The notes: generated by a model from the letters alone, not told the origin. Positions 1-46,931 are shown, counted from the first letter of the stretch. The stretch is 64,000 bases of DNA from Bryobacterales bacterium (GCA_965219585.1 CBDCOA010000003.1:2001375-2065374); one strand, 5' to 3'. Numbers and translations are program-made.

Positions 1-3000
1 CGGCAGCTTTGCCGATTGGTTGGAGGCGGAAGGCGTGCCGCGGGGGGCTTGGGAGGCACTGCCCGGGGACATGGAACGATTGTCGCGATCGTACGCTCTG
101 GCGGCTCTGGAGGCATTGGGCTGGCACCGCGAGAGAGGGGCGGCGGTCGATCCGTCGCGTTTGCGCAGAGAGTTGCGGGTGGTAGCGGGCCACAAGCGCT
201 TGCTGCAGTGCCTGCTGGGGATGCTGGCGGAGGCCGGGGTCTTGCAGAGGAGTGGGGCGAAATCCCGCGAGTGGGTGGTGGCCGTGGGTGCGGGAGAGAC
301 CCTGCCCGATGGCCTGGTGGAGTCACCCGCCGGGCTGGGCGAGAGCCTGGCGGAGAGGCACTTGCAGGCCACCCACGAGCTGGGTCTGCTGATGCGCTGC
401 GGGGGAGCATTGGCGGAGGTGTTACGGGGGCGGGCGGATCCGTTGGATCTGCTCTTCGGCGATGAGGGCTGCGGGGCGGCCGAGCTGTACCGGGAAGCAC
501 CGTTGCTGCGGGCCGCGAACCGCATGCTGGGTGCCGCGGTCAAGTTGCTAGTGGCAGGCTTGCCGGAGGAACGGCGTCTGCGGGTGCTGGAAGTAGGTGC
601 CGGCACGGGCAGCGCGACGGCGGAGGTGCTGGCAGCGCTCCCGAAGGGGCGGTTTGACTACGCCTACACGGACATCTCGGCGGGGTTCTTTGCGGAGGCA
701 GCGGAACGGTTCGGTTCCGCATTCCCGGGCATTGAGTACCGCGCGCTGGACATCGAGGCGGACCCGACGGCACAGGGATTGGATGCGCACGGGTATGACC
801 TCGTGATCGCCGGCAATGTGTTGCACGCGACGCGGGATCTGGAGCGGACGCTGGCGCACTGCCGTGGTCTGCTGGCGCCGGCCGGGCAGCTGGTAGCGCT
901 GGAGACCTTGCAACCGCAAGGGTGGCTGGACCTGACGTTCGGGTTGCTGGAGGGCTGGTGGCGGTTCGATGACCGCTACCGGGACGAGCACGCCGTGGTG
1001 GAGGCGGACGTTTGGCGGCAGGCCCTGGCGGAGGCGGGTTTCGGCAGCGTGGAGGTGCTTGAGGGGGGTGTCGGGGACGTGGTCGCGCACGGCGTGATCG
1101 TGGCGCGGGGGCCTCTCGAGGTCGAAGAGGCCGCTGGCCTGTGGGTGTTGGCAGGCGAAGGGTCGGAACTGGTTCGGGAACTGGCCGAGGCGCTGGTCAC
1201 GCGCAATCAGGCAGTGATCGTGGCGGGCGGCGACGCGTCCGAAGTGCCGCCGCCGGGCATCACGGCGGCATATGTCGATCCAGCGAAGCGCGAGGCCTGG
1301 CGTTCGCTGCTGGAGGACTTGCCCGCCGGGCCCCCGTTGCGGGGCGTCGTGCATCTGGGTGCGCTGACGGGGTGCGGACAAGCGGCCACGACCGAGGAAT
1401 TGGCGCATGACACAACCCGAGTGGGCTCGGAGGCATTGGCGCTGGTGCAGGGACTGCTGGACGCGGCCGTTGAGCCCGCGGACGGGCTGTGGTTCGTGAC
1501 GCTTGGCGCGCAAGTGGTCGAGCGCGAGCGAGGCGGCCAGTTGGCTGGGGCGACGCTGTGGGGCCTGGGCAAGACAGTGGCGCTGGAAGCGCCGCAGTTG
1601 TATCCGCGGCTGGTGGACCTCGACCCGTCTCAGACGGTGCGCGCCGAAATGCTCGCGGACGAGTTGCTGCATTCCGACCGGGATGCCCAAGTGGCTCACC
1701 GCGGCGACAGGCGCTATGCCGCCCGACTGGCACGCAGCGCTGGGACAGGGTGGTTGCGACTGCCAGAGGATTCGGCTTGGCGCTTGGCACGCGATCCGGA
1801 CGGGGTCTTGGCCGACCTGCAGGCAGGGCCGGCTGAGCTGGCCGCCCCCGGGCCCGGCGAGGTCCGCGTGCAAGTGACCGCGGCAGGGCTGAATTTCAAA
1901 GACGTTCTGATCGCGATGGGCCTAGTCGACGCCCACGTTCCCCTGGGATCGGAGTTCTGCGGCCAAGTGACTGCCACGGGTCCGGGAGTCACCGCGCTGG
2001 CGGTCGGCGACCGGGTGGCCGGTCTGGCAGGAGGCGCCTTCGCTTCTGAAGTCGTCACGCGCGAGGAACTGGTCGCGAAAGCACCCGCAGGAATGCCGGT
2101 GGCAGAGTTGGCAACCGTGCCGATAACGTTCGTGACCGCGGCGCTGGCCTTTGAGCTGGCTGGCGTGAAGCCGGGAGAGCGCGTATTGGTACATGCCGCG
2201 GCCGGGGGAGTGGGCCAGGCGGCCATCCAAGTGGCGGGCGCGCTGGGGGCGGTCGTGATCGCCACTGCGAGTTCCGGGAAGCGCGACCACCTGCGGTCCT
2301 TGGGAGTCGAGCACGTGTTCGACAGCCGATCGACGGAGTTCGGCGAGGAAATCCTCGCCCTGACAGAGGGTGCCGGGGTCTCGATGGTCCTGAACAGCCT
2401 GACGGGGCCGGGCTTCATCGAAGCGAGCCTGTCGTGCCTAGGCGTGGGCGGCCGCTTCGTCGAGATCGGCAAGCGTGACATCTGGAGCGGAGAGCGGATG
2501 GAAGCGGCGAGGCCGGATGTCGGCTACCGCGTCTTGGCCGTGGACCAACTCGTGATCGATGAGCCGGCCACCGTCGGCGCGGTGCTCCGAAAGGTGATGC
2601 AGCGTGTCGAACTGGGGGAGCTGCGACCGCTGGAATACAGCGCGTGGCCCCTGGCGGAGGCGGCAGCGGCCATGGAGCACATGCGGTCGGGGCGCCACAC
2701 GGGCAAGATCGTGCTCAGGTTTCCACCGCTGACGGTTGTCGGGCTGCGGCAGGACGGCACTTACCTGGTAACAGGCGGGCTCTCCGGGATAGGGCAACTT
2801 GCGGCTGGCTGGCTGGCGGACCGCGGGGCGCGCTGGATCGTGCTGAACGGCCGGCGGGAGCCCGGGCCGGAGGCCCAAGCGGCGATCACGGGCCTTCGGG
2901 AGCGCGGTGTCGAAGTGCGCGTCGAACTGGCGGACGTGACCGACTCCGGGGCCGTGGACGCGATGCTCGAGCGGATCGAAGCGGCGATGCCGCCGCTGGC

Positions 3001-3800
3001 GGGAGTGATCCATAGCGTCGGGGTGATCGCCGACGCGTCACTGGCCAACCAAGACTGGGAGAGGTTCGAGCGCGTCCTGAGCCCCAAGGTTCTGGGCGCG
3101 TGGCAATTGCACAGGGCCACCGCTTCGAGAGACTTGGATCTCTTTATCCTTTTCTCAAGTGCGGCCGGCGTGCTCGGCAGCCCGGGCCAGGCCAACCACG
3201 CGGCGGCGAACGCTTTCTTGGACCACTTGGTACGCCACCGCCGTTCGATGGGCCTTTCCGGCCAGTCGATCGCGTGGGGCCCATGGTCGGAGATCGGCGA
3301 AGCGGCGGAGCAGCGGGACAGGCTTCACAGCCGCTTCAAGAGGCTCGGGATCGGCTGGATTGCGGCATCACGCGGAATGCGGGCCTTCTCGTGGCTGGTT
3401 CGACAGGACTTGCCGGCCAGCATGGCGGCTCCGGTGGACTGGCAACAATTCTCCGTGCATCTGAAGGACAGCCAGCTGCTAGGGGAGCTGCTCGCTGGCA
3501 CCCAGCGAGTGACCGGACTCGGAACACAGGCCGGCGACATGGTGTCACGCCTGCGGAATGCGCCAGAGGAAGAGCGCGTGCAGCTGCTGACAGCCCTGCT
3601 TCAGGCCGAGTCGCAGGCGGTGCTTGGCCTCCCCGCTCCTCCCGACCCGTCGGTGGGCTTCTTCGATCTGGGCATGGATTCGCTGATGGCCGTGGAACTG
3701 ACCAATCGGCTGAACCGAGCCTTGGCTGGCGAACACCATGCGTCCAGCAGCCTCGTGTTCGACCATCCTGACATCAACGCCCTGGCCCGCCACCTGACCG
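1..3800 (+). other. PKS module A (partial): cMT ~340-1115, psiKR ~1135-1780, ER ~1780-2730, KR ~2755-3460, ACP ~3570-3800
   Basis: cMT motif [12 protein letters not shown] starts at 578. ER has HAAAGGVG (~2190-2215) and RFVEIGK with the Lys codon aag at 2471-2473. KR has TGGLSGIG and QANHAAAN with His codon cac at 3197-3199. The ACP DSL Ser codon is at 3680-3682. Confidence 0.85.
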
Positions 3801-6800
3801 CGGAGCTGGGACTGGTCGAGGATCAGCGGCCGCAGGTCTTAGGGGAGCGCGCGCCAGCGCAGCACGACAGCGAATCGATAGCGATCGTGGGCATGGCATG
3901 CCGATTCCCGCAGGGGGATGGCCTGGCTGCCTTCTGGCGGCAGTTGGAGTTGGGCGAAAGCTCGGTGGTCCATGGCCGACCCGATTCGCGGGTCCGCCTC
4001 GGAGCATTCCAGGACCGGGGCGAGAGCCAGGGCAATGACGGCCTCCGCTGGGGCGGGTTCATCGAGGGGATCGACCAGTTCGACGCGGCATTCTTCCGGA
4101 TCACACCTCCGGAGGCACGCTTGATGGACCCGCAGCATCGAATCCTGCTGGAGACCACTTGGCATGCGATTGAAGAGGCAGGGCTTTCGGCGGCTGGCCT
4201 GGCGGGGAGTCGGACGGGGGTGTACGCCGGGATCGCCGGAAGCGACTATCGGGAGCTTGTCCTGCGGGCCGGCGAAGAGGCGGCGGGCCTGTATTCCGCC
4301 ACCGGCAGCCTTGGCAGCACAGCAATCGGACGGATCGCTTTTTCGCTGGGCCTCCAGGGTCCGGCAGTGGCGGTGGACACCGCCTGCTCATCGTCGCTCG
4401 TTGCCGTCCATCAGGCCATGGCAGCCCTGCAGCGGGGCGAGGTGGACTTAGCGCTCGCCGGCGGAGTGAACGCGATCCTCACAACAACATCGGCGGAAAC
4501 CTTTGCCAAGGCCGGCGCGATCGCGCGGGACGGGCGGTGCAAGACGTTTGACGCATCGGCCGACGGGTACGTGCGGGGAGAGGGCTGCGGGATCGTGGTG
4601 CTCAAGCGCCTCTCCGAGGCCAAGGCTGACGGGGACCGGATCTGGGCCGTGCTGCGGGGGTCGGCAATAAACCAGGACGGAGCGAGCGCAGGGCTGACCG
4701 TTCCGAACGGGACCGCCCAGCAGAGGGTGATCGAAGAAGCACTCGATCGCTCCGGGCTGAAACCGGCCGACGTGGACTACCTCGAAGCGCACGGAACGGG
4801 CACAGAGCTTGGAGACCCAGTGGAAGTCCACGCCGCTGCCGCGGTGTATGGACGCGGCCGACCGGCCGAGCGACCGCTGCTGATCGGCTCGGTGAAGCCC
4901 AATGTCGGCCATCTCGAGGCGGCTGCGGGCATCGCGGGCCTGATCAAGGTCGTGCTCTCCCTGCAGCGGGGCCTGATCCCGAAGCACTTGAACCTTCAAA
5001 CTCCGAGCCCGCGAATTGATTGGAGCGGACTCCCCGTGCGGGTCACGACAGAGGCCCTTCCCTGGCCAGCGTCACCCGGGCACCCGCTGCGCGCCGGTGT
5101 GAGTTCGTTTGGCATCTCTGGCACCAATGCGCATGTCATCGTCGAGGGGCACGCGGTTACCGACGCAGACGCGCAGGTGCCTTCGGCAGGATCCGTCACG
5201 GCTTCAACGCAGCCGACCGGACCCCGGCCACCGACGGAAGATGGACTGCAACCGCGCAAGGCACGCTTGCTGCCGTTGTCGGGTCGGTCGCAAGGTGCGC
5301 TCCGCGCTCTGGCGGTTCAGTATCGGTCGTGGCTGGAACACGGGTCGGACCAATGGCTCTCGCCTGGCCAGTGGCCCACCGGGGAGGCTGGCTCCCCGTC
5401 CGATCCGCCGGTTGCCGACGTGGCCTGGAACGCCGCCGTTAGCCGGGCCCACTTCCACCACAGAGCCGGTCTCGTCTTCACAGGGGTGGAGGACTTGCAG
5501 AAGAGTCTCGACCAACTGATCGCGGGCGGGCAGGGGCGCGAGGCGGTTGAGGAGCCGAAAGTTGCGTTCGTGTTCGCGGGTCAAGGCAGCCAATGGGACG
5601 GCATGGGACGGTCGCTATACGAGAGCGAGCCAGTGGTTCGGGAGGTCCTAGACCGTTGCGAGCAGGAGATCCGGCAGCTGCGCGGAGTGTCCTTGTTGGA
5701 GGTCATGTTTGGATCGGCGGGAGCAGCGGGGGATATCGACAGCACGGCTTGGACGCAACCCGCGCTCTACGCGCTGGAGTGCGCGCTGGCTGCGCTGTGG
5801 AAGAGCGTGGGAGTACGGCCGGCGGCAGTGCTAGGGCACAGCGTGGGGGAGATAGCGGCGGCGCAGGTAGCGGGGGTGTTCGGGCTGGAAGACGGGCTGC
5901 GGTTCGCGGCGGCGAGGGGAGAGCTGATGGGGTCGCTACCGGTGGAGGGCCCGGCCGCGGGCACGATGCTGGCAGTCTTCGATTCTCCCGAACGCGTGGC
6001 GATCGCACTGACGGAGCACAATGCTGCGACAGAGGGCGTGGGCCTGAGCCTGGCCGCGGAGAACGGGACGCACCGGGTGGTTTCCGGACCGCGGGCGGAT
6101 GTGGCGGCGTTTGCAGAGCGGTTCAAGAGCGCGGGCGTGCGGGTCGTCCCGCTGAACACAAGCCAAGCGTTTCACAGCGGGCTGATGGATCCGGTGCTGG
6201 ACGAGATCGAGGCGGCGGCGAGCATGCTTGCAACGGAACCCCCGTCGGCGCCCGTGATCAGCAACGTGACCGGGCGGGCGATCCGAGACAGGGAACAACT
6301 GGACGGGGCCTACTGGAGACTGCAGGCCCGGTCACCGGTAGCGTTCGGGGAGGGGATCGCGGCTCTGGCGGACCTGGGCGCGGAGCTTGTCATCGAGATA
6401 GGGCCGGATCCGGTGCTGGGTCCGTTGGTCGAGCAGGCTTGGCCGGCTCGAGCCGCTGACGGGACGGCCACGGAACTGGCGGTGATAGCCACCCAGCGAA
6501 AGGCAGCAGGCGAGCAGAGCGCGTTCGCGGAAGCGGCGGCCCGGGCGTACGAAGCCGGGGCCCCGCTCGACTTCGAGGGACTGTTCGCAGGCGAGACTCG
6601 GCGAAGGATTCCACTGCCCATGTATCCGTTCCAGCGCCAGCGTTATTGGGTGGCCGCGCCAAAGCCTCACGTGGCGAGCGGCGGGCACGGGCTCCTGGGC
6701 ACGCGGCGGGACTCCGCGCATGGGGAGGTCACCTTCGAGAACGAGCTTTCGGCGACTGCTCCGGAGTGGCTGGCAGATCACCGGGTGTTCGGACTGGTCG

Positions 6801-9800
6801 TTGCGCCGGCGGCCCAGTATGGGGCCGCGGCTGCCGAGGCGGCCGCGCTGACCTCGGGGTCAGTCTCGGCGGAGATTGAACAGCTGCAGATACTCGCTCC
6901 CTTGGTTCTGGGCGATGCGGATCCGGACAGCGACGGCGGCGCCCCGGAGCAGACCGTGCAGGTTGTGGTGGGCCGCCCTGGACGGTCCGCCGCCCGTGAA
7001 GTGAGCATTTATAGCAAGGCCCTGGAGGCCGGGACATGGACTCTGCACGCGACTGCCCGCGCGGTGCCGTGCGCGGCGGCCGAAGAGAGTGAGACCGACC
7101 TGCAGGAACTCAAGGAAAGCCTGTCACCCGTCGGAGTGCCAGAACTCTACGGGAATCTCGCGAAGAGCGGCATCGGGTACGGTTCGTCGTTCCGGGCGGT
7201 GGAAGCGGCCTGGTCGGGGCCGGACCAATCCATCGGCGAGATTGTGCTGTCACCCGAGTTGGACAGGGGAGCTTCGCTCGTGCACCCTGCGCAGCTTGAT
7301 GGATGCATCCAAATAGTTGCCGCCATGTCAAACTTCGGCGAAAGCGAAAGCTCGGAGGGGGGCACCTACGTGCCCCTCGGCTGGGATCGGTTGCGGCTGC
7401 ACAGAGCCCTGCCCGAGCGGGTGGTGTGTCACGCCGAAAGGCGAACTCGCGAAGGCGCGGGCCTTGACAATGCGGAGGCATCCCAGACATTGGTTGCGGA
7501 CCTGGCGTTCTTCGACCCGGAGGGCGCGCAGATAGGCGGCATCAGCGGGCTCGTGTTGAGACGGGTGACACGCGTGGCGCTGTTGTCAGCGGCCGAGGAT
7601 GTCGAGGATCTGCTGTACGAGGTGGCGTGGCGGAGACGACCGCATGTGAGCGGGATCTGCCCAGCCGATTTCCTGGCACGACCGACCGAAGCGAGCAAGC
7701 TCCGGGGCAGCTTTGCCCAGAGCCTTGAGGCAGCGGGGGTTGCGCCGGCCTCGTGGGATGCCTTGTTCACGGATTTGGGCCGTCTGGCGAGGTCGTATGC
7801 GTTGGCGAGCCTGGATGGCTTGGGCTGGCGGCGCGAGGCAGGGGCGGTCGTGGATCCGTCGGACTTGCGAAAACAGCTGAAGGTGGTGGCTGACCACGAG
7901 AAGCTGTTCCTGCGCCTGCTGCACATGTTGGCGGAGGCCGGCGTGCTGACACCAAAGGCGGCAGGCCCCCGAGGCTGGACGGTGGCCACCGGTGCGGATG
8001 ATGCACTGCCAGAAGGTCTGGCGGCAGAGCCGCGGGCTCTGGGGGAGCGGCTCTTGGGACAGCACGGGCACGGCTCGCACGAACTGGGCCTGCTGATGCG
8101 CTGCGGGCAGGCCTTGGCGGACGTGCTCCGGGGAAGGGTCGACCCCTTGGATCTGCTGTTCGGAAGCGACGGCGGCGGCGCGGCGGATTTGTACCAGGAG
8201 GCGCCGGCACTGCGGGCAGCGAATCAATTGGTCGGCGCCATCGTGGCGCTGCTGGGCGCTGGCCTGCCGGAAGGCCGCAGGCTGCGGGTGCTGGAGGTCG
8301 GGGCAGGCACGGGGAGCGCGACAGCGGAGGTGCTGGCAGTTCTGCCGAGCGGGAGCTTCGACTACGTCTACTCGGACATCTCGGCCGGTTTCTTCGCAAG
8401 CGCCGAGGAGCGCTTCGGCGGGCGGCAACAGGGACTTGAGTACCGTCCGCTGGACATCGAGGCAGATCCGACGGGACAAGGGCTGGAGGCTCACGGGTTC
8501 GACCTGCTGATCGCAGCGAACGTGCTGCACGCAACGCGGGACTTGGGGGAGACGCTGGAGCATTGCCGGAAACTGCTGGCACCGGCGGGGCAGCTGGTGG
8601 CCCTGGAGGTATTGAGGCCGCAAGAGTGGCTGGACCTGACGTTCGGCCTGCTCGAAGGCTGGTGGCGGTTTGACGACAAGTATCGGGGCGATCACGCCCT
8701 GCTCGGTGCAAGTGCATGGAAGCAAGCATTGTCGGAGGCAGGCTTCGGCGAGGTGGAGGTGCTGGAAGCGGCTGTCGGCGAGGAGGTCTCGCACGGGGTG
8801 ATCGTGGCGCGGGGGCCTGTCGAGGTTGAGGAGCAGCCGGGCCTTTGGGTGCTGGCGGGAGAAGGATCGGCGCTGGTCCAGGACTTGGCCCGCAGGCTGG
8901 CCGCGCACAACCAGGCGGTGATCGTGGCTGGGCCGGACACGGAGCGCGGGGAGGCGGAAGAGCCTGGAGTCACTTCGGCTTTCATGCACACCTCGAAGCG
9001 GGAAGCGTGGCGTTCCCTGTGCGACGATCTGCCAACGGACGTTCCATTCCGGGGCGTGGTGCACCTCAGCGGCCTGGAAGGGCACGGAGAGGCGGCTTCC
9101 ACTGCTGAAATGCGAGACGACGTGGCCCGCATCGGAGCAGAGGCGCTCGCGCTGCTGCAGGGACTGGAGGACGCGGGGGCGAAGCCGCTGGACGGGGTGT
9201 GCTTCGTGACGTGTGGGGGACAAGTGGTGCACAGCGAGGGATGCGGCCAGCTGGCGGGGTCGACGCTGTGGGGCTTGGGGCCGGCGGCGGCGCTGGAGGT
9301 GCCGCAGTTGCGTCCCCGGATGGTCGATCTCGACCCGCGCGGGCGGGTCCAGTTGGATGCGCTGGTGAACGAGTTGCTGCATGCCGACCAAGAGACCCAC
9401 GTAGCGCACCGCGGGGAGGCGCGCTACGTTGCGCGGCTCGTGCGTGGCTTGCGGGCCGGAGCCCTGCAGTTGCCGCAAGGGCCAGGCTGGCGCTTGGCGC
9501 GCAAAGAGGGCGCCGCGCCGCGTGGCTTGGCGGTTGAGACCGCAGGGCTGGCTCCGCCGGCAAGCGGCGAGGTTCGCGTGGCAGTCGCCGCGGCGGGGCT
9601 GAACTTCACCGACGTGCAGAGCGAGACGGAAATTGTCGGCGAGCCCATCGCTTTGGGCCGAGAGTTCGCCGGCCAAGTGCTGGCGACCGGTCCAGGCGTG
9701 GACACGGTGGCGGTCGGCGACCGGGTGGTCGGTCTCGCTTCGGGAGCGTTTGGCCCCGAGGCGCTCACCCGCGAGGAACTCGTCACAAAGGCACCCGCCG

Positions 9801-29600: not shown

Positions 29601-32600
29601 GGGAACGGCGGCGGGTCCGGCTCCAGGCCGGCGGTGCTGGCGAGCCTGCGGCGGGAGGAGGGCGCGGCAGGCGGCTTCGCAGCGGCCGCGGCCGCTGCGT
29701 ACGAGGCCGGCGCGGCTGTCCACTTCGAGGGCTTGTTCGCGGGCGAGAGCCGCCGGCGGGTGTCCCTGCCGGGGTACCCCTTCCAGCGCGAGCGGTTCTG
29801 GGTCGAGCCGCCGAAGCGACGGATCGCGGGCGGCGGCCACGCGCTGCTGGGCACGCGCCGCGACATGGTCGGCGGGGAAGTCACGTTCGAAACGCAGATG
29901 TTCGCTTCGGCCCCGGAGTGGCTGGGAGACTACTCGGTGCTCGGACTGATCGTGGTCCCCGGGTCCCTGTACGGAGCGGCGGCCGTGGAGACAGCGGGCG
30001 CGATGCCCGGAATGGCCGGGGTCGTGGTCGAGGACCTGCATGTGCAGGTGCCCATGCACTTCGCAGGCGAAGACGGGCACAGCGAGCCTGACGACCGCGG
30101 AAAGACCGTGCAGGTGGTCGTCAAGGACACGGAAGAATCGGCGGCTCGTCGCATGGAGCTCTACAGCCAAGGCCCGGAGGACACGTGGACGCTGCACGCA
30201 GCGGCACGGCTGGGGAGGCCTGCCGACCGTGTCGATTTGCCGGCTGCAGTGGACATTGAAGCGCGCAGGTCGGGGCTTTCGCCCAAGAGCGCGCCAGACA
30301 TCTACCGAGGTCTTGCCGCCACCGGCATCGAGTACGGAGAGGCACTCCGCAGCGTCGAGGCTGTTTGGTCGAGCCAAGGAGAGGCAGTGGCCGAAATTGC
30401 GCTCCCCGGCGGATTGGAGCCGATGGGGTCGTGGCTGCATCCGGCTCAAATCGAGGGCTTCTTCCAGCTAGCCGCCCTGTTGGCGAATGACACGGAGGGG
30501 GCGAGGCCGGGCGCGCTCATTCCTTCCGGATGGGAGCGGCTGTGGCTTGTCGGCCCCCTGCCGGAGCGCCTAGTTTGCTGCGCGCGGATGCGCGCCTCCA
30601 ACGGCGTGGGACTGCAGCGGGCCGGGGATTCCGGGGCCCAGGTTGCAGACCTTGACTTGTACGACCCCCGGGGCATGCCTCTGGGCGGGGTCAGCGGGCT
30701 GGCGTTGAAGCCGACCACGCGGGCAGCGTTGTTGTCTGCAGCCGGGGGCGTGGAGGACCTCTTGTACGAGGTCGTATGGCGGGAGCAACCTTGGGTGAGC
30801 GGGTTGCAATCGGCCGGGTTCCTGGCGGCGCCGAGCGCGGCCGGCGAACTCAGGGGAACCTTCATCGAGAAGCTTGAAGCGGAAGGTGCAGTCCTGGAGT
30901 CTTGGGAAGAGCTGCTGGGGGGGCTGGCGCAAGTGTCGCGGTCGTACGCCCTGGCGGGGATGGAGGCCTTGGGCTGGCATCGCGAGACAGGCGCGATTGT
31001 CGAGCCGGAGCCGTTGCGGAGGCAGCTGAGAGTAGTCGCGGACCACCAGCATCTCTTCCGGCGCCTGCTGGGGATGCTGGAGAAGGCCGGGGTGTTGCAG
31101 GCGCGGGAGACGGAATCCCCAAGCTGGGTGGTGACCGTTGGTTCAGGCGAGCCCTTGCCCGAGGGTGTGGCGCAGAATCCCCGGGCCTTGGCAGAGGGAT
31201 TCTTGGAGCGGCATCCGTCCGGATCGCACGAGATGAGTCTGCTAATGCGTTGCGGGGATGCGTTGGCGGACTTGCTGGCGGGGCGGGTGGAACCGCTGGA
31301 GCTGCTGTTCGGCGGTGAGTTTGCCGGACTGGCGGACTTGTACCACCACTCGCCGGGGATGCGGGCGGCGAATCGCATGCTCGGCGCCGCGGTCGGCTTG
31401 CTGGCGGCAGGCCTGCCAGAGGGACGGCGATTGCGGGTTCTGGAAGTGGGGGCCGGCACGGGCAGCGCCACGGCGGAGGCGCTCAAGGCTCTGCCGGCAG
31501 GTCGCTTCGAATACCTCTTCACGGATCTCTCGGCGGGGTTCTTCGCCGAGGCGGAAGAGCGCTTCGGCGCGACCGACGCGGGGATCGAGTACCGAGTGCT
31601 GAACATCGAGGCGGCCCCTGAAGGCCTGGGCCTGCCAGCGCACAGGCACGACGTGATCATTGCCGCGAACGTGCTGCACGCGACCCGGGACCTGGCCAAG
31701 ACGCTGGAGAATTGCCGGAGGCTGCTGGCGCCGGCAGGGCTGCTCCTGGCATTGGAGACCTTCCGCCCCCAGGAGTGGATGGACCTGACGTTCGGGGCGC
31801 TGGAGGGCTGGTCCCGCTTCTCGGACCAATACCGGAGCGAGCACGCAATGGCGGACGAGGGCGTGTGGCGGCAGGCCTTGGCGGACACCGGCTTCGGCGA
31901 GGTAGAGGTGCTGGAGGGCGGCGTCGGAGATGTGGTCTGGCAGGGGGTGCTCGTGGCGCGAGGGCCACTCGAGGTGGCCGACACGCCGGGCCTGTGGGTG
32001 CTGGCAGGAAACGGATCGGCAGCGGCCCAGGAGCTGGCCGGCCGACTGGCGACCCGCAACCAGACGGTGATCGTGGCGGGTCAGGGGACGATGCCCGAAG
32101 CGTCGCAGCATGCGCGCATCACGGCCGCCGACATGGACCCGGCGAAGCGGGAGGCCTGGCGTGCGCTGCTAGAGGGCCTGCCTGCCGAGGCCCGCTTGCG
32201 GGGCGTGGTGCACCTGGGGGCCTTGAACGAGCAAGGCAATGCGGTCACGACAGCCAAACTGGCGGAATGCACGACCCGCATCGGAGAGAGTGCGCTGGCT
32301 CTGGTGCAAGGGTTGCAGGACGCGGGGGCGGAGCCGCTCGACGGCCTGTGGTTCGTGACGCGGGGCGGCCAGGTCGTCAAGCGCGACCAAGGTGGCGAGC
32401 TGGCCGGGGCGATGCTCTGGGGCTTGGGCAAGGCGGTGGCCATGGAGGCGGACCAGCTGCGGCCCCGCATGGTGGATCTGGACCCGCGGGAGCCGGAGCC
32501 GATGGACAGGTTGGTGGATGAGCTGCTGCACGCCGACCGCGAGACGCACGTTGCTCACCGGGGCGCGGCCCGCTTTGCAGCCCGCCTCGTAAGCAGCGCC

Positions 32601-35600
32601 CGGACAGGACGCCTTGGCCTGCCAGGGGAGCCGGGCTGGCGCCTGACACGCGACACGGGCGGCGCGCCGGACGCCCTCAGGGTTGAGTCGGCCGGGCTGG
32701 CCGCGCCGGGTCCCGGCGAGGTCCGCGTGGCGGTGGCCGCGGCCGGGCTGAATTCTCACGACGTCCTGATCGCGATGGGCATCTCGGACCAGCACAGTCC
32801 GCTGGGCACGGAGTTCTGCGGCCAGGTGACCTCGACCGGCGCGGGCGTGACCGAGGTGTCAGCCGGCGACCGGGTGGTCGGCCTTGCCTCGGGAGCCTTC
32901 GGCCCGGAGGTCCTCGCAAGCGAGGAACTGGTCGCGAAGGCCCCCGACGGATTCCCGGCGGCGGCGCTGGCGGCGATCCCTGCGGCGTTTGTGACGGCCG
33001 AGCTGGCATTGGAACTGGGCGGCCTCGAGGCTGGCCACAGAGTGCTGGTGCACGCGCGGGAGGGGGATGTGGGCCTAGCGGCGGTCCAACTGGCGCGCGC
33101 GGCGGGCGCGGAGGTGCTTGCAACGGCAAGCACCGACATGCTTGCCTACCTGCGGTCGCTGGGTGTCGAGCACGTGTTCGACAGCCAAGCCACGGATCTC
33201 GGCCAGGAAGTGCTCGCGGCGACCGCGGGAGCCGGCGTCGGAATGGTGCTGAACAGCCTGGCGGAGCCGGGCTTCATCGAAGCGAGCCTGGCGTGCCTGG
33301 AGCAGGGCGGCCGGTTTGTCGAGATCGCGGGACGGGACACCTGGAGCGCCGAGCGGATGGCGGAGGCCAGGCCGGACGTGGGCTACCACGTGCTGGCCTT
33401 GGATCGGCTCGCGAGCGACGAGCCGGCGAGGGTGGGGACCCAGCTGAGGTCCGCGGTGCGGAGGATGGGAGCCCGCAAACTGGAGCCGCTGCCGCACAGC
33501 GCATGGCCGCTGGCGGAGGCAGGGGCAGCGATGGAGTACTTCCGGTCGGAGCGTCCCGTCGGCAAGGTGGTGCTGACGCTGCCGCGGCTGGCGACCGGGG
33601 GCCTGCGGGAGGACGGAACGTACCTGGTGACCGGAGGGCTGGCTGGGATCGGATTGCTGGCGGCCGACTGGCTGGCGGACTGCGGCGCGCGCTGGGTCGT
33701 GTTGAACGGCCGCCAAGAACCGGATGCCGAAGCGAAGCCGGCGATCGAGGCCCTGCGGAAGCTGGGAGTCGAAGTGCGCGTGGAGGTGACGGACGTGACC
33801 GACTCGGCGGCCGTGGACGGCATGCTGGAGCGGATCGAACGCACCATGCCGCCGCTGGCGGGAGTGATTCACAGCGCGGGGGTGCTCGCGGACGCCACCC
33901 TGGCCAACCAGGGCTGGGAACGATTCGAACGGGTGATCGGGCCGAAGGTGCTAGGGGCCTGGCACCTGCACACGGCAACCGCAGGCCGGGACTTGGACTT
34001 CTTCGTTCTGTTCTCGAGCATTGCGGGCGTGTTGGGAAACGCCGGCCAGGCGAACCACGCGGCGGCCAACGCGTTTCTGGACCAGTTGGCGTGGCATCGG
34101 CGGTCGATGGGCCTAGCGGGCCAGTCGATTGCGTGGGGGCCTTGGTCGGAGGTTGGCGAGGCCGAGGAACAGCGTGCGCGGATCGCGGAGCGCTTGGCAG
34201 CGAGCGGCGTGGGATGGATCGTTCCGCGCCGAGGCCTGCGAGTGCTCGACAGTCTCGTGCGGCGGGACGTGGTGTGCGCGACTGTGCTGTCGGTGGATTG
34301 GTCTCAGTTCGCGTCCCACCTGCCTGCCACCCTGCCACTGCTGCGAGAACTGGTGGCTCCGAGGGCCGGTGGACGGGGTGTGGCCGCCAAGGTCGACCTC
34401 GTCGAGCGCCTCAGAGCGGTGTCGGCTCGCGAGCGCGAACGGCTCTTGGCCGGCTTCCTGCAGGGCGAGGTTCAGGCCGTCCTGCGGCTGGCTTCCCCGC
34501 CCGAGGTGACCTCCGGGTTCTTCGACCTTGGGTTGGACTCGCTGATGGCCGTGGAACTGGGGAATCGTCTGAACCGGGCGTTCGGCGGGGAGTACAAGCC
34601 CACGAGCACGGAGGTGTTTGACTTTCCCGACATCAAGAGCCTGGCCGGACACTTGGCGGCAGCGTTCGGGGAGATCGAGGAAGCCCCGGCCGGGCCGGAA
34701 CGGCCGGTCCCGACGCTAGGACAGGAGGGCGGCATCGCGATCGTGGGCATGGCGTGTCGATTCCCGGGAGCGCGGGACCTGTCGGCATTTTGGGATGAAC
34801 TGGCCGGGGCCGGATGCGCAGTGACGCCGGGTCGCCAGGGTTCGTCGGTGGGGCCCTCGGAAGGGGATTTTCCGGAACAAGTGGGCGAACAGGACGCTCG
34901 TCGCTGGGGGGCGTTCGTCGACGAGATCGACCTGTTTGACGCAGAGTTCTTCCGCATCGCGCCCGTGGAGGCAGAGGTGCTGGACCCGCAACAGCGGATC
35001 TTGCTGGAGACGAGTTGGCTGGCGCTGGAGGAGGCGGGGATCGACCCGGGCCGGCTGAGAGGCGGCCGCACCGGCGTGTACGTGGGGATTGCGACCAACG
35101 ACTATTCGGAGGTGATTGAGCGAGGGGGGCGAAGGACGGGCGATTTGTACGTGGCGACCGGGAATTCGGGCAGCACTGCAATCGGGCGAGTGGCATTCTC
35201 GCTCGGGCTGGAAGGGCCGGCGATGGCCGTGGACACGGCCTGCTCGTCTTCCCTGGTCGCACTCCACCAAGGGGTGGCGGCGTTGGAGCGGGGCGAGGCG
35301 GACTTGGTGCTGGCGGGAGGGGTGAACGCGATCCTGACGCCGACCAGCACCGAACTGCTGGCCAAGGGGGGGATGCTGGCGCCGGACGGCGTGTGCAAGG
35401 CATTCGATGCGGCGGCAAATGGGTTCGTGCGAGGCGAGGGATGCGGGGTCGTGGTGCTGAAGCGTCTGCGGGAAGCGGAGGCGGACGGGGACCGCATCTG
35501 GGCTGTGATCCGGGGTTCGGCGGTGAACCAGGACGGGGCCAGCGCGGGCCTGACGGTGCCGAACGGGCCGGCCCAGGAGCGGGTGATCGGACAGGCGCTG

Positions 35601-38600
35601 GCGCGGGCAGGGCTCGAGCCGGCAGAAGTCGACTACCTAGAGGCGCACGGCACCGGGACGGAACTGGGGGATCCGATCGAGGTGCGGGCCGCTGCTGCGG
35701 CCTACGGGCGTGGCAGGGCGGCGAATCGACCTCTGTTGATGGGATCGGTGAAGACAAACATCGGCCACCTGGAAACGGCGGCGGGAATCGCCGGGCTGAT
35801 CAAGGTGGTGCTGTCGATGGAGCACGGAATGTTGCCGAAGCACCTGCATTGCCGGCAGCTGAATCCGCGCATCGACTGGGACGCGCTGCCCGTGGAGGTG
35901 ACAACGGAGGCCCGGCCGTGGCCGGCTTCGCCGGACCGACCGGTGCGGGCGGGAGTGAGTTCCTTCGGATTCTCCGGAACGAATTCGCACGTGGTCTTGG
36001 AAGCCCCCGAGAGTCACCGTCGCGGGCATGGCCCCTTGATGCCGATCGCCGCGGCGCAGGCTGGAACCGGCGGTCCCCCGGAGCCGCGCGGGAAGCGGCT
36101 CTTGCCGCTCTCCGGGAAGTCTTCGCTGGCGGTGCGGGAGTTGGCGGGCCGCTACCTGTCTTGGCTGGAGAGCCGGGGCGGCGTGCTGGGCCAGGGGGAA
36201 GAGTCGGAATCGCTGCTGGCCGACATGGCGTGGACGGCGGGAGCCGGCAGGAGCCACTTCGAGCACCGGGCCTCGGTGGTGTTCGGGGACCTATCGGAAC
36301 TGCGGGCCGCGCTGGAGGAGCTGGCCGCGGACCGGGAGATCGCGCGCGCAGCCCAAGAGCCGCAGGTAGCTTTCGTGTTCACGGGCCAAGGCAGCCAGTG
36401 GGCTGGCATGGGGCGCTGGCTGTACGAGCGGGAGCCGGTGGCACAGGCAGTGCTGGACCGCTGCGAAAAGGTAATGCAGGAATTGCGGGGAGCGTCCCTG
36501 CTGGAGGTGATGTTCGGGCAGCCGGGAGCGGCCGGGGATTTGGACGACACCGGATGGACGCAGCCGGCGCTGTACGCGCTGGAGTGCGCGCTGGCGGCAC
36601 AGTGGGCGAGCGTCGGACTGTCTCCGGTGGCCGTGCTGGGCCACAGCGTGGGAGAGATCGCGGCGGCGCAAGTGGCGGGGGTGTTCGAGCTGGAGGACGG
36701 TCTGCGGTTTGCGGCGGCGAGGGGCGAGTTGATGGGATCGCTGCCGGTGGACGGGCCGGAGGCAGGGGCCATGCTGGCGGTGTTCGCCTCGCCGCAGCGG
36801 GTGAGTCAGGCGCTGGAGGAGCACGCTGCGGGCGATGACGGATCGGGGCTGAGCCTAGCGGCGGAAAACGGGACGCACCGCGTGGTCAGCGGGCCGTTGG
36901 AGGAGGTGGAGACACTGGCAAAGCGCTTCGAGCAGGCGGGAGTGCGGGTGGCGCGGCTGAACACGAGCCACGCGTTCCATAGCACCCTGATGGACCCAGT
37001 GCTGGACGACATCGAGGAGGCGCTGGAGGCAGTGACCCTGGGTTCGCCCGCAGTAGCCTTGGTGAGCAACGTCACGGGCCGGGCGGTGCGCGAGGGCGAG
37101 CGGCTGGACGGGGCGTACTGGCGGCGGCAGGCGCGCGAGCCGGTAGCCTTCGCGGCCGGCGTACAGGCACTGGCGGAAATCGGCGTCGATGTAGTCGTCG
37201 AGATCGGCCCGCAGGCGATCTTGGGGCCGTTGGTCGAGCAGGCGTGGCCGGCCGAGAGCAGCGACGGAGCGGTTTCGGGACCGAGAGTGGTGGAGAGCCT
37301 CCGACGGGAGGCGGGCGGGGCGAACGGCTTCTCCGCAGCCGTGGCCGGCGCATATGAGGCCGGGGCGGCGATCAGCTTCGAGGGCCTGTTTGCCGGCGAG
37401 ATCAGGCGAAGGGTGCCCCTGCCCGGCTACCCGTTCCAGCGGAAGAGGTTCTGGATTGAGCAAGGCAAGCGCAAGGTGACCGAAGAGGGCCATGCGCTGC
37501 TGGGGGCGCGGCGCGACTCGGCACGAGGCGGGATGGCGTTCGAGACGGACCTGCACGCCACGGACCCGGCTTGGCTGGCAGATCACCGGGTGTTCGGCAT
37601 GGTAGTGGCGCCGGGTGCCTTGTACGGGGTGCTGGGGGTGGAAGCGGCAGCGACGACCGGCGGAACCGATGCAGTGGTGCTGCAGGACCTACAGTTGCAC
37701 GAGCCTATGATATGGCTCGAAGAGCCGGAGGATGGGCCGCCTGCCGGCGAGGGGCGCACCGTGCAGGTGTTCGTGGACGGAGCGGAGGGATCTTCAGGCC
37801 GGCTCTTCGAGGTCTACAGCCAAGGCAGCGGGGAGACTGCGTGGCAGTTGCACGCCACGGCGCGCGTGGAGCGGGGCGAGGCGGGCACGCCCGAAGCGAT
37901 CGGCCTGGGGGCACTCAGGGAGACCCTGTCGAGGGTGGACTCGACCGACTTTTACCGGAGCATCAGGAGGCGAGGCATTGTGCACGGTCCCGCCTTCCAG
38001 GGGCTGGCGGCCATCTGGTCCGGCCCGGGGGAGGCCATCGGCGAGGTGGTGCTCTCATCGCAGGCAGGTCCTGGCAGGTTGTGGATGCATCCGGCGCAGC
38101 TGGATGCGTGCTTCCAGGTGGTCGTCGCCACCGTAAGGGACGCCGAAGAGTTCGATTCAGACACCTACATGCCCATCGGATGGGAGCGCATGTGGCTTGC
38201 GGGCCCCGTGCCGGAGCGGATGTTCTGCCATGCGCGGTTGCTTGAGAGGCCCGATGCAGGTACCCCGGGTCCCGGGCCCGCCGAAGTGTTGGTTGCGGAA
38301 CTTGGGCTGTACGACATGCAGGGCGCGGCCCTGGGCGGAGTCAGGGGACTGGTGCTGAAACGCGCGACGCGTGCCGCGCTGGTGTCCGCCATCGAAGGCG
38401 TGGAGGACCTGCTGTACGAGACGGCGTGGCGGAAACAGCCCCGGGCAGGCAGACAGCGGGCAGCCGATCTCCCAGCGGCACAGGCCGGGTTGGAGCAACT
38501 CAGGGGCAGCTTTGCCGAGAGCCTTGCGTCGGAAGGCGTACCGCCGGAGGCTTGGTCCGCCCTGCATGAGGATCTCGACCGGTTGGCACGGTCATACGCC

Positions 38601-41600
38601 ATGGCAGGGCTGGAAGCCTTGGGCTGGCGGCGCGAGAAGGGTGCGGTCGTAGATCTGTCCCTGGCGCAAGAGCAGCTGAAGGTCGTGGGGGACCACCGGA
38701 GACTGTTCGGGCGGATGCTCGCCATGCTGGCCGAGGCCGGGGTCTTGCAGGCGGAGGCGGAGGGCACCCCGGGCTGGGCGGTGGCCGTCGGCGCGGACGA
38801 CGACTTGCCAGAAGGACTGGCGTCGGAACCTGGGGCCGTCGGGGCGCGGCTGCTGGAGCGGCATGCACACGGCGCGCACGAGCTGGGCGTGCTAATTCGC
38901 TGCGGGGAGACGCTAGCGGACGTGCTGCGGGGCCACGCGGATCCGCTAGAAGTGCTGTCCGGCCCCGAAGGTGCCGGGCTGGCGGACATCTACCGGCACG
39001 CACCGGGGATGCGCGCGGCGAACCGTATGGTCGGCAAGACGGTGGCAGCGCTCGTGGCGGGCCTGCCCAAGGGCCGTCCTTTGCGGGTGCTCGAGATCGG
39101 GGCCGGCACGGGCAGCACGACGGCGGAGGTGCTGGCAGTGCTGCCGGCGGGTCGATTCAGCTATGTCTGCACGGACAGCTCCCAGAGTTGCCTCGCAGAG
39201 ACAGAGGCGCGATTCGGTGCGGGAGTCGAGTCCCGGGTGCTGGACATCGAGGCGGACCCGGCAGGCCAGGGGCTGGAGCCGCACCGATACGACCTGGTGA
39301 TCGCGGCGGACGTGCTGCACGCAACACGGGACCTCGGGAAGACACTGGAGCATTGCCGGAGGCTGCTGGCGCCGGCTGGGCACTTGGTGGTGCTGGAGTC
39401 CCTGCGCCCGCAGGCATGGCGGGACCTGACGTTCGGGTTGATGGAGGGTTGGTGGCGATTCGCGGACCCGTACCGGGACGATCAAGCCTTGGCGGGAGCG
39501 AGCGCGTGGCGGCAGGCGTTGGAGGAATCGGGCTTCGGTGACGTGGAAGTGCTGGAGAGCGGCGCGGAGGACACGGCCTGGCAAGGGGTGATCGTAGCGC
39601 GGGGCCAATTCGAAGCGGAGGAAGAGCCGGGCGTGTGGGTGCTGGCCGGAGGGGCTTCAGCGCTGGCTCAGGAGCTGGCCGAGAAGCTGGAGACACGCAA
39701 TCAGGCGGTCGTCTTGGCGAGGCACGACACGGACCAACTGGCAGGAGTCACGACGGCGTATGTGGACCCGACGAGGCGAGAGGCCTGGAGCTCGCTGCTG
39801 GCGGATCTGCGCAGCGAGGCCCCTCTGCGAGGCGTGGTGCACCTAGGCGCCCTAGAGGGCCACGGAGCAACGGCGACGACGCCGGAACTGGCACAAGACA
39901 TGGCCCGGATCGGGGAGGGGGCTCTGGCGCTGCTCCAGGGGCTGCAGGACGTGGGGGCTGAGCCCCTGGAAGGCATGTGGTTCGTTACGCGGGGTGGCCA
40001 AGTGGTCGAGCGCGAGCGAGGCGGCCAATTGGCAGGGGCGACGCTGTGGGGCTTGGCTAGGGCGGTGGCGCTGGAGGCACCGCAGTTGCGCTTGCGCATG
40101 GTCGATCTCGATCCGCGGGCACCGCTCCAGGCGGACTCGCTGCTAGACGAATTGCTGGATGCCGACCGGGAGACGCTCGTGGCTCACCGAGGCGCCACCC
40201 GCCATGCAGCGCGGCTCGTGCGGGCCGCCCGGACGGGCCGCCTGCGGCTGCCGGAGGAGGCGGGTTGGCGCCTTGCCCCGGGCACCGGCGGAAGCCTGGA
40301 TGACCTGAGGGTAGAGCCCGCAGGCCTGCCCGCACCGGGAGAAGGCAAGATCCGCGCATCCGTGAGCGCGGCAGGACTCAACTTCTACGACGTCTTGTCC
40401 GCAATGGGGGTTGTCGATCTGTACAACCCCCTGGGCGCGGAGTTCTGCGGTCGGGTAATCGCGATCGGTCCGGGCGTAACCTCAGTGGCAGTTGGAGACC
40501 GGGTGGCCGGCCTCGCCGCGGGAGCCTTCGGCCCCGAGGTTGTCACGAGCGAGGAACTGGTCGCGAAGTCGCGTTCCGGCTTGCCGGCGGCGGCGCTGGC
40601 AACCGTGCCGACGACTTTCCTGACAGCGGCCATAGCTTTCGAGCTGGCCGGCCTCCAAGCCGGCGACCGGGTGCTAGTGCACGCCGGGGCCGGCGGTGTG
40701 GGCTTGGCGGCAATCCGCTTGGCCCAGGCTGGCGGCGCGGAGGTGATCGCGACGGCGAGCAGCTGGAAGCGCCCGTATCTGCGGTCGCTGGGCGTGCAGC
40801 ACGTGTTCGACAGCCGAACCACGGCCTTCGGCGAGAAAGTTCTGGCGGTTACCGGGGGAGCGGGCGTCGAGGTCGTGCTGAACAGCCTGACGGGCCCGGG
40901 ATTCATCGAGGCGAGCCTTGCGTGCCTGGGCCAGGGCGGCAGGTTCGTCGAGATCGCCAAGCGCGACATCTTCAGCGCGGAGCAGATGGCGGCGGCCAGG
41001 CCAGATGTCGACTACCACATCCTGGCGCTCGATCAACTCGTGATCGATGAGCCGGAGAGAGTCGGAACACAGCTGCGGGCGTTGATGGATCGGATCGACT
41101 CCAAGGATTTGGAGCCGCTCCCGCACAGCGCATGGCCCCTAGCGGAGGCGAGCGCGGCGATGGAGCACATGCGGTCGGCGCGCCATGTGGGCAAGATTGT
41201 GCTGACGCTGCCGTCGCTGGCGTCCGGCGGGCTGCGGGGGAACGGCACGTATCTGGTGACGGGCGGCCTAGCTGGGATTGGACGACTGGCGGCGACCTGG
41301 CTGGCTGACAACGGGGCGCGCTGGATCGTGCTGAACGGCCGGCGGGAGCCCGACTCCGAAGCCGGCGCAGCAATCGCGGCGCTGCGGGAGCGGGGAGTCA
41401 CGGTGCAGGTGGAACTGGCGGACGTGACCGACTCCGCTGCCCTAGACTCCATGCTAGAGAGGGTCGAGGCTGCGATGCCGCCGCTGGCAGGGGTGATTCA
41501 CAGCGCGGGGGTAATCGCCGACGCATCGCTGACCAACCAAGACTGGGGGGGATTCGAGCGAGTCTTGGAGCCGAAAGTGCTTGGGGCCTGGCACCTGCAC

Positions 41601-45782: not shown

Positions 45783-46931
45783 ATGAGTGAACCTCTCGTC
45801 TCGGGCAGCACTGCGGACCGTCGCCAACCGTCCGGGGTGCCAAGCCTCTCATATATGTTCCCGTTCATTCCGCCCAAGGTGTGGATTCGACTGCTTTGGG
45901 AACACAACGGATCACAACTTCGTCATTGGCCTCACTTAGCACAGCAGCTTCTGACCAGCATCCTGGCGAGCCCCTTGAAGTGGGCCGAGCGCATTCAATT
46001 CGACCAACGGATTGCCAGAACACCGATCGAGGAGGCCCCGCTGACGATTCTGGGCCTCCCACGCAGTGGGACTACTCACTTGCACAACTTGCTCGCTCAA
46101 GATCCAAGGCACGGGTTCGTCTCCACGTTTCAAGCGATTGCACCGGAGTGTTGTCTGAGCGGGGGAGAAACACTCCAACGGTGGGTTGCAAAGCATCTTC
46201 CAAGCAATCGACCAATGGACAGCGTAGAATTCGCACTGGAGCACCCACAAGAGGAAGAATTTGCGATAGCCAACTTGAGCCATATGTCGTTCTACCATGC
46301 AATGTGGTTCCCGAGACTCTCAACGGAATATTTTGGCAAGTATGTCCTTATGTATGGACTGAAATCCGAAGAATTCATCGAGTGGAGAAAAACCTATCTT
46401 GACGTCGTACGCAAGGCCCAATATTATTCCAAGAGGCGTCGAATCATACTCAAGAATCCGTTAAGCATTTTCAGAATACCTGCAATTCTCAAGATCTTCC
46501 CAAGCATGAAGTTCATCCACATTGTGAGGAATCCATTTCTGCTATACCAATCCTTGTGCAATGCAATGCGACAGCTCTCCTTTGGATTAGACTATTCGGA
46601 CAAAGAAATCGAGAACTTTGGCATCATGTACTATACGATCGGACTGAATTCATACCTCCAAGACCGTAAGCTGATTCCGTCAGGAAACTTGATTGAAGTG
46701 CGATATGAAGATCTAATTGCAAATCCAATTCCTGAACTTGAGCAGGTTTATACACAACTCGATCTCCGCGAATGGGAACAACACAAGGGTCACATTTCTG
46801 AATATATTCGCTCCATATCAGACTACAAGAAAAATCGTTACAAGATTAGCAAGTCAGCGATTGACCGGGTAAATGACGCTTGGGGTTTTGCGGTAAAGGA
46901 GTGGGGGTATAGCGCGCCAGAACCGCAGTAA
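45783..46931 (+). CDS. Stand-alone PAPS-dependent sulfotransferase (TPST-like / Sulfotransfer_3-type)
   Basis: The 5'-PSB loop is LGLPRSGTTHLHNLLAQDP. The 3'-PB segment is FPSMKFIHIVRNPFLLYQS, which fits the ...FPxAKFIhIVRdPxxxxxS pattern. Stop TAA is at 46929-46931. The start is uncertain: ATG 45783 or the in-frame ATG 45855 (MFPFIPPKVW), where the GC drop begins. The track ORF start at 45651 is an upstream extension with no support. Confidence 0.85.
   Translation: MSEPLVSGSTADRRQPSGVPSLSYMFPFIPPKVWIRLLWEHNGSQLRHWPHLAQQLLTSILASPLKWAERIQFDQRIARTPIEEAPLTILGLPRSGTTHLHNLLAQDPRHGFVSTFQAIAPECCLSGGETLQRWVAKHLPSNRPMDSVEFALEHPQEEEFAIANLSHMSFYHAMWFPRLSTEYFGKYVLMYGLKSEEFIEWRKTYLDVVRKAQYYSKRRRIILKNPLSIFRIPAILKIFPSMKFIHIVRNPFLLYQSLCNAMRQLSFGLDYSDKEIENFGIMYYTIGLNSYLQDRKLIPSGNLIEVRYEDLIANPIPELEQVYTQLDLREWEQHKGHISEYIRSISDYKKNRYKISKSAIDRVNDAWGFAVKEWGYSAPEPQ

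Follow-up and report, generated by a model that had tools for sequence, protein, structure and literature searches.

The 64,000-nucleotide stretch of DNA analyzed here, referred to as the window (Bryobacterales bacterium, GCA_965219585.1 CBDCOA010000003.1:2001375-2065374), contains part of a multimodular cis-acyltransferase polyketide synthase (PKS) from a sponge-associated member of the Bryobacterales (Acidobacteriota), and the six enoylreductase (ER) domains visible in it divide into two that keep and four that lack conserved residues of the cofactor site. The first 45 kb are occupied by two giant open reading frames (ORFs) running in the same direction with no internal stop, and the G+C content of this region is 0.67-0.73. 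ORF 1 (20..11698, + strand) enters from upstream past the 5' end of the window and encodes the end of module A, which is only partly visible as C-methyltransferase (cMT)-ER-ketoreductase (KR)-acyl carrier protein (ACP), followed by the complete module B. ORF 2 (11691..45158, + strand; 11,155 amino acids) encodes modules C, D, E and F and then a terminal pair of ketosynthase (KS) and acyltransferase (AT) domains with no ACP. Motif scanning and Pfam matches show that modules B-F are complete, with the order KS-AT-dehydratase (DH)-cMT-ER-KR-ACP. The GC skew of the PKS coding strand is strongly positive (0.12-0.22) over window positions 1-44000 and close to zero beyond 48 kb.

All six ERs are full length, as the original prediction had held, each being composed of 308 amino acids with zero indels between them, and comparisons of ERs B-E with A and F give identities of 59-77%. 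The Pfam families ADH_N, ADH_zinc_N and ADH_zinc_N_2 give two matches each in ORF 1, corresponding to ERs A and B. Residue numbers given here count within the 308-amino acid domain, and all six domains lie on the + strand. ER_A (1802..2725) and ER_F (40290..41213) are canonical, having the NADPH loops HAAAGGVG (2192-2215) and HAGAGGVG (40680-40703), respectively, together with Lys160, Ser175-Arg176, Lys224 (AAG at 2471-2473 in A and 40959-40961 in F), Asp248 and Arg298-His299. ER_B (9512..10435), ER_C (17409..18332) and ER_E (32661..33584) are predicted to be inactive, and ER_D (25026..25949), the most divergent of the six, is probably inactive and the least certain. The HxxxGGVG loop expected of a competent ER is present in A and F, whereas in the other four its second glycine, Gly136, is replaced by Asp in B (HAGAGDVG; GAC, 9917), C (HTGAGDVG; GAT, 17814) and E (HAREGDVG; GAT) and by Ala in D (HAGAGAVG; 25431). 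Arg176 of the FDSR motif, encoded by CGA in A and F, becomes Gly in B (10037) and Gln in C (17934), D (25551) and E, and His299 of RHxGK, kept in A and F, becomes Gln in B (10406), Pro in C (18303) and E, and Thr in D (25920). At position 224 the Lys is changed to Gly in B (WFVELSG; GGG, 10181), C (RFVEIAG; GGT, 18078) and E (RFVEIAG; GGA, 33330), and ER_D has an Arg (RFVETVRDG; AGG, 25695-25697). Further substitutions affect Lys160 of ATASxxK (Gln in B and Met in E, kept in A, C, D and F), Ser175 (Val in B and Gly in D, kept in A, C, E and F), Asn31 of LNFxD (Ser in C and Asp in D, kept in A, B, E and F), Phe32 (Leu in C and Ser in E) and the VLNSL motif, which is VLNGA in ER_D. The six loop and lysine-segment motifs, with their coordinates, had all been correctly read in the original prediction.

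Comparison with ER crystal structures places the glycine loop and the lysine where they had been assumed to lie. Aligned over its full length (residues 1-308), ER_A matches CurK (PDB code 5DP1) with an E value of 9e-67, SpnB (PDB code 3SLK) with 3e-64 and MAS (PDB code 5BP4) with 2e-62. Lys224 aligns with K443 of the 3SLK chain, equivalent to SpnB K422 assuming a chain offset of 21, and the conserved Asp248 aligns with chain residue D465 (SpnB D444 with the same offset). The corresponding stretch of mammalian fatty acid synthase (FAS) is RFLEIGKFD...ILLD, where K1771 and D1797 have the same spacing. In human FAS these two residues sit beside the nicotinamide (PMC12058525).

The rarity of the substitutions was judged against 210 diverse PKS ERs and against closer relatives, the latter obtained by an ER-alignment scan of species-representative genomes that gave 79 loci. 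A single-module KS-AT-DH-MT-ER-KR-ACP gene with one ER is found in 76 of the 79, and two ERs occur only in loci L001-L003, all from metagenome-assembled genomes (MAGs) of Bryobacterales. L001 and L002 are 99.4% identical to window positions 29433-43584 and 25974-43584, respectively, and these independent MAG contigs carry the same ER_E and ER_F motifs, which are therefore not assembly errors. Gly136 is present in 206 of the 210 diverse ERs and in 76/76 single-module relatives. Position 224 is more permissive, with Lys in 168 and Arg in 32 of the 210 (200 with either residue) and Arg in 73 of the 76, and position 248 varies as well, with 53 Asp and 22 Tyr among the 76. In ER_D there is no gap in the alignment between RFVE and the next W/F-S anchor, and since Arg is typical of the family at position 224 the second feature is not lost in this module. 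The proposal that loop and lysine are lost together in modules B-E consequently stands for B, C and E, with GDVG and Gly224, and fails for D. Of the Lys/Asp pair only half is affected, because the Lys varies and Asp248 is kept in all six ERs. Nor can the Lys be treated as an established essential catalytic residue; the ER active site is not fully established, the Lys-to-Ala mutation in the spinosyn ER caused the largest loss of activity, and the knock-outs that have been effective changed GGVG to SPVG (PMC7327777). For a fungal ER a proton-donor role of these residues has been doubted, and the donor is left open (PMC5369529). The second ER of L003 (11225-12148) has intact GGVG, FDSR and RH motifs with Lys224Thr, Asp248Asn and Lys160Gln, and it therefore shows that loop and lysine are not obligately coupled.

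The perfect co-variation of these two features had been put forward as unlikely to be noise. Taken alone they are weak evidence, because two binary traits scored in six modules would match completely by chance with a probability of 1/15, and ERs C and E are sister copies. What does bear out the proposal is that a wider set of positions divides the modules in the same way. Asn31, Phe32, Gly136, Lys160 and Arg176 are invariant in the 76 single-module relatives and His299 is present in 74 of them, with Arg176 found in 205 and Lys160 in 206 of the 210 diverse ERs. Conservation among the 210 ERs reaches at least 90% at 41 columns, where A has no deviation, F has one, B and C have four each and D and E five each (A and F together 1/82, B-E 18/164; Fisher p=0.005). 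The single-module relatives define 111 columns with at least 95% conservation, and the deviations there number 13 in A, 12 in F, 23 in B, 19 in C, 31 in D and 22 in E, and a second alignment with 113 such columns gives 14, 13, 24, 20, 32 and 23, respectively (27/226 compared with 99/452; Fisher p=0.002). Alignment with Escherichia coli qorA, the quinone oxidoreductase (QOR), pairs QOR Y192/R193 with ER Ser175/Arg176 and R317 with Arg298/His299, and QOR K177 falls opposite Lys160 one residue out of register (MAFFT). Both Arg176 and His299, at this putative 2'-phosphate site, are gone in every one of B-E. The ATAS segment is retained, B-E having gained no acidic residue at the end of strand β2. 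The common theme in B-E thus appears to be an eroded cofactor site. The NADPH motif of the KR domains, TGGLxGIG, is intact in 6/6 modules, and the loss is therefore specific to the ERs.

The ERs that lack these residues remain under purifying selection. Pairwise dN/dS values between the paralogous ERs (NG86 method) are 0.24 for A-F, 0.25-0.34 for mixed pairs and 0.31-0.40 within B-E, and a codon bootstrap gives 0.354 (confidence interval (CI) 0.29-0.43) for B-E and 0.238 (CI 0.16-0.31) for A-F, a difference of 0.12 (CI 0.03-0.20), all of these being rough values in view of the high dS between paralogues (0.3-0.9) and the clear signs of gene conversion. The corresponding values for other domains are about 0.2 for KR, about 0.17 for KS, about 0.3 for cMT and 0.4-0.5 for DH, with KS, AT and KR together spanning 0.15-0.33. 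In Tajima relative-rate tests against a consensus of the single-module relatives, B, C and E do not evolve faster (p>0.17), and D is faster than F with 40 compared with 21 unique changes (p=0.015, uncorrected). The relaxed selection that had been expected in B-E is therefore seen to a modest extent, 0.35 compared with 0.24, and it is not accompanied by significant acceleration of B, C or E. Between the window and L001 and L002, ER_E differs by six synonymous and three nonsynonymous single nucleotide polymorphisms (SNPs), too few for statistical power, and with 2-7 SNPs per ER per comparison ER_F is likewise underpowered. Selection on ERs B-E is thus mildly relaxed and far from neutral, and they appear to be kept as folded units because purifying selection persists, there are no indels and B, C and E are not accelerated. 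An AlphaFold model of ER_C made with the six-sequence alignment had a mean predicted local distance difference test score (pLDDT) of 62 with the N-terminal domain unmodeled, and it was not used.

The explanation we consider likely is that A and F reduce the enoyl intermediate and that B, C, E and probably D no longer do so and are kept as scaffolds. A and F keep every conserved residue of the cofactor and active sites and presumably carry out the reduction. B, C, E and probably D would have lost their contacts to NADPH, namely the second loop Gly, Ser175/Arg176 and His299, with Lys160 in B and E, and B, C and E would in addition lack the basic residue beside the nicotinamide through the change of Lys/Arg224 to Gly. 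The inactive ERs may then be retained as folded scaffolds of a FAS-like modifying region. For B, C and E we are quite confident that NADPH is not bound productively and that the domains act as scaffolds; for D the same is probable with less assurance. The substitutions, their places in the structural alignments, their rarity in the family, their parallel origin and the persisting purifying selection are read directly from the sequences, and the abolished NADPH binding and reduction, the scaffold role and the product are deduced from them. The description of B-E as dead, made from loop and lysine, accordingly fits B, C and E, where the Gly-to-Asp loop and loss of the residues aligned with the 2'-phosphate site are joined by the same Lys-to-Gly change as in the fungal LpaA/PPS1 synthases, but for D neither of those two features is diagnostic. 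Inactivity of D probably rests instead on Asn31Asp, Ser175Gly, Arg176Gln and His299Thr and on its having the most deviations at conserved columns.

In addition to the high dS, the gene conversion and the sparse SNPs noted above, several observations weigh against this explanation. The putative assignment of the 2'-phosphate site leans on an alignment with QOR K177, Y192/R193 and R317, the NADPH 2'-phosphate contacts of that enzyme, whose residue identities match the qorA sequence. GAVG is the native loop in the NADP-dependent leukotriene B4 (LTB4) 12-hydroxydehydrogenase (LTB4DH) and prostaglandin reductase 1 (PTGR1) (PDB codes 1V3T and 2Y05: AAAGAVG), and one otherwise intact PKS ER in the database carries GEVG. 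From the alignment of AAGGVG with GLGGVG, the replaced Gly136 would be an "x" position of the classical GxGxxG fingerprint. Asp248 is present in 6/6 ERs, Arg298 is kept in all of B-E, and ER_D keeps Arg224, Asp248, Lys160 and Arg298. Mutating the proposed Lys, Asp or Tyr one at a time in no case eliminates ER activity (PMC7327777).

One alternative is that module D at least, and possibly others, still reduces, the substitutions having retuned cofactor affinity or specificity toward weaker NADPH binding or toward NADH. The shared GAVG loop of D with the NADP-dependent PTGR1 and LTB4DH, its family-typical Arg224 alongside Asp248, Lys160 and Arg298, the purifying selection on all of B-E (ω 0.3-0.4) and the centering of the losses on the 2'-phosphate site, which separates NADPH from NADH, would all be explained. 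We nevertheless regard it as unlikely. Arg176 and His299, invariant or nearly so in the 76 relatives, are gone in B-E; D has in addition lost Asn31 and Ser175, has VLNGA for VLNSL and shows the most deviations (32/113); a switch to NADH would predict an acidic residue at the end of strand β2, where ATAS is retained; and the loop Asp of B, C and E would adjoin the pyrophosphate.

A tree of the ERs groups B, C, D and E as a clade in just 9% of bootstraps. C and E are sisters with 100% bootstrap, D is placed with F weakly (57%), A groups with the ERs of L003, and the ERs of this multimodular PKS form their own clade with 100% bootstrap. C and E are mosaic sisters, from the DH-cMT linker through the ACP. 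Replacements differ between B, the C/E pair and D, being Asp (GAC), Asp (GAT) and Ala at position 136, Gly, Gln and Gln at 176, Gly, Gly and Arg at 224, and Gln, Pro and Thr at 299. Because residues or codons differ by lineage and B-E do not form a clade, the simplest history to which the sequences point is one of at least three parallel losses, and such losses argue that, in several lineages of modules, the selection acting on cofactor binding has been relaxed or reversed.

A history of shared ancestry only, in which one ER died once and B-E descend from it, would account for all four substitutions being common to C and E and for Asp136 and Gly224 of B recurring in that pair, and the modules do exchange sequence. 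The KS-AT regions of D (19467-22043) and E (27084-29660) are 89% identical at the protein level in KS, 97% in the linker and 99% in AT (AT dS 0.02), whereas DH, cMT and ER of the same two modules are merely 44-64% identical, and this near-identity beside diverged neighbors indicates recent gene conversion or recombination between modules D and E. With the B+C+D+E grouping in 9% of bootstraps, D placed with F, and residues at 136, 176, 224 and 299 differing by lineage in a way not expected from a single ancestral event, descent from one dead ER is improbable, and parallel loss remains the history we prefer.

The remaining domains determine what the modules would add to the chain. The motif HxxxGxxxxP is conserved in four of the complete modules (B, C, D and F). 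In DH_E the motif DYSVLGLIVVP (29928-29960, + strand) replaces (D/E)HRVFG(M/L)VVAP, so that the catalytic His is Tyr (29931-29933), the Asp of HPAQLD is Glu (30453-30455), and the domain has 22 deviations at 61 conserved columns with 42-48% identity to the other DHs; it is probably inactive or of different origin. Because DH_E lacks its catalytic His, ER_E would be redundant anyway. The module ATs carry malonyl-type motifs (GHSVG; HAFHS or QAFHS). The catalytic Tyr, His (NVLHAT) and Glu (LVxLE) of the cMT are present in 6/6 modules with a 26-residue spacing as in CurJ (PDB code 5THY), and deviations at 99 conserved cMT columns number 23 in D (23736-24506), 21 in F (39012-39770) and 10-11 in A-C. 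In cMT_F the Asn of NVLHAT is Asp (39309-39311) and the post-I motif is degenerate (YVCTDSSQSCL, 39162-39194). His161 of the cMT (Cys in D, Gln in F) was considered as a catalytic residue and rejected, being Tyr in CurJ and Glu in LovB; the true dyad consists of the NVLHAT His and the LVxLE Glu. The KRs look active and B-type. Where the KR catalytic Tyr is expected, modules A, B, C and E have His (GQANHAAAN), as do at least 95% of the single-module relatives, and D and F have Tyr (KR domains, e.g., 2726-3442 and 25950-26666).

Modules B, C and D are predicted to give α-methyl-α,β-enoyl units. The limitation of such olefin units to B-D in the original prediction agrees with the His-to-Tyr change of DH_E, the malonyl-type ATs and the cMT Tyr, His and Glu of B-D. 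Module E is predicted to give an α-methyl-β-hydroxy unit because DH_E would also be dead, module A a saturated, methyl-branched unit, and module F a saturated unit whose methylation is uncertain because of the Asn-to-Asp change and degenerate post-I motif of cMT_F.

The terminal KS-AT pair (42312-45158, + strand) follows the ACP of module F. Its KS keeps the active-site Cys (DTTCSS) with HGTGT changed to HATGS, and its AT has the active-site Ser replaced by Gly (GHGVG, 44331-44333) and has lost the HAFH motif. ORF 2 ends directly past the post-AT linker YPFQRERYW, with neither an ACP nor a thioesterase (TE) next, and the same stop and spacing are found in the independent ENA assembly L083, which is 99.5% identical. 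Such features, together with DH_E, the deviant cMTs of D and F and the fall in G+C at 44-48 kb, could be taken to mean that the whole synthase is decaying and that the ER changes belong to general pseudogenization instead of programmed loss. That is very hard to reconcile with two frames intact over 45 kb with no stop, with dN/dS values of 0.15-0.33 for KS, AT and KR, and with three independent assemblies that are 99.4-99.5% identical and differ by more synonymous than nonsynonymous SNPs (44:33 and 69:39), and we give it very little credence beside the loss of reduction in B, C, E and probably D.

Each domain has its nearest relatives among single-module genes in sponge-symbiont MAGs of many phyla. 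Almost all of the 79 loci come from MAGs of lineages typical of sponge symbionts, such as Ca. Porisulfidus "lac_sponge," Ca. Palauibacter, SAR202 and Bryobacterales. A search of the representative protein library found nothing more than 62% identical and hence no orthologue of the "dead" ERs. A scan of JGI metagenomes with ER_C gave no close relative (best 33%), and a search of word-indexed proteins with ER_C gave just 34 short fragments, every one with GGVG and none of them a close match. The MAGs of L001 and L002 (JAJEHF01 and JAJDZN01) are listed representatives of different species, yet the two contigs are 99.4% identical to the window and to each other; binning or dereplication artifacts, or recent transfer, are possible origins of this identity. 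L003 (JAJEHF010000190.1, 1-14492) is a second multimodular contig from the same MAG as L001 with the same architecture and approximately 73% identity to the window modules, and it possibly represents an upstream portion of this synthase.

These relatives match the published description of the Sup ("symbiont ubiquitous") PKSs, which are small and monomodular, specific to sponges of high microbial abundance, and candidate makers of methyl-branched fatty acids (PMC4245539, PMC9864124). The match to Sup is by this description, the relatives of the window domains being single-module genes in sponge symbionts. The window PKS itself has at least six modules in succession, encoded by two ORFs, and this multimodular synthase is not of the single-module Sup type. 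Its modules apparently arose by duplication of a single-module PKS resembling Sup. It also has four ERs, one DH and one AT with substitutions of an inactivating type that are found in 0/76 single-module relatives.

Inactive ERs of full length are known from fungal synthases. LpaA of Laetiporus and PPS1 have the order KS-AT-DH-MT-ER0-KR-ACP(-TE) and make methyl-branched polyenes, and their full-length ER is judged inactive and structural because the equivalent of FAS K1771 is Gly (PMC7473843). The window modules have the same domain order and, in B, C and E, the same Lys-to-Gly change. LpaA and PPS1 are single iterative modules, whereas the ER0 domains of the window lie in four modules of a bacterial assembly line beside two intact ERs and are eroded at the cofactor site as well. 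LovB is a related fungal highly reducing PKS with an inactive ER. The ERs B-E conform to the structural description of an ER0, having a full-length, kept fold with active-site or cofactor residues replaced. The six ERs share the medium-chain dehydrogenase/reductase fold with the characterized active domains (SpnB ER2, CurK, MAS and mammalian FAS; full-length matches with E values of 1e-67 to 1e-33), and A and F have GGVG and the Lys/Asp pair in common with these, whereas Arg176, His299 and the second Gly of the loop are missing from B-E and the Lys is missing from B, C and E. Engineered GGVG-to-SPVG changes in the monensin and aureothin synthases abolish ER activity through the NADPH loop and not through a single catalytic residue (PMC7327777), and ER1 of fostriecin is inactive despite an intact NADPH site. 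The engineered mutants change both glycines, whereas B-E change only the second, to Asp or Ala, plus other cofactor contacts.

Downstream of the PKS the G+C content falls at 44-48 kb. The first gene is a stand-alone sulfotransferase (45783-46931; Pfam Sulfotransfer_3 and Sulfotransfer_1) with a local G+C of 0.59, and the ORFs at 45-64 kb further comprise DUF1549/DUF1553 (PSCyt2/PSD1) and DUF1501 genes (50597-54408), RelA/SpoT, a tetratricopeptide repeat (TPR) protein, TonB and SecF. The end of the cluster seems to lie before 50 kb because housekeeping genes (RelA/SpoT, TPR, TonB and SecF) begin at about 57 kb. Neither a thioesterase nor any other release domain was seen in the 64-kb window, no trans-acting ER was found among the ORFs at 45-64 kb, and exact-sequence look-ups with the DUF1501 and RelA ORFs gave no match.

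Inactive ERs that serve as scaffolds are already well known, and no new kind of domain or mechanism is represented here. The setting is more unusual, in that a single-module PKS type specific to sponges has given rise to a multimodular synthase in which several paralogous modules show point inactivation in parallel. If B-E are truly ER0 domains, the reduction pattern of the synthase becomes predictable, and the target to look for in the host sponge would be an α-methyl triene followed by hydroxy and saturated units. As a tentative proposal, a normally single-module, sponge-specific PKS of Sup-like type may have grown, in a Bryobacterales symbiont, to a collinear assembly line whose reduction pattern was set as four ERs, one DH and one AT were inactivated in parallel by point changes. 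If so, the product would be a polymethylated lipid with three consecutive trisubstituted olefins, then a hydroxy and then a saturated unit, perhaps with a sulfate added by the neighboring sulfotransferase, and domain "programming by decay" would be seen in progress. With B-E as ER0 domains, the six ERs would also constitute a natural experiment in which copies independently lose the same cofactor residues with the fold still under selection, separating the structural from the functional positions of the ER, which may be of use in engineering ER-silent reductive loops.

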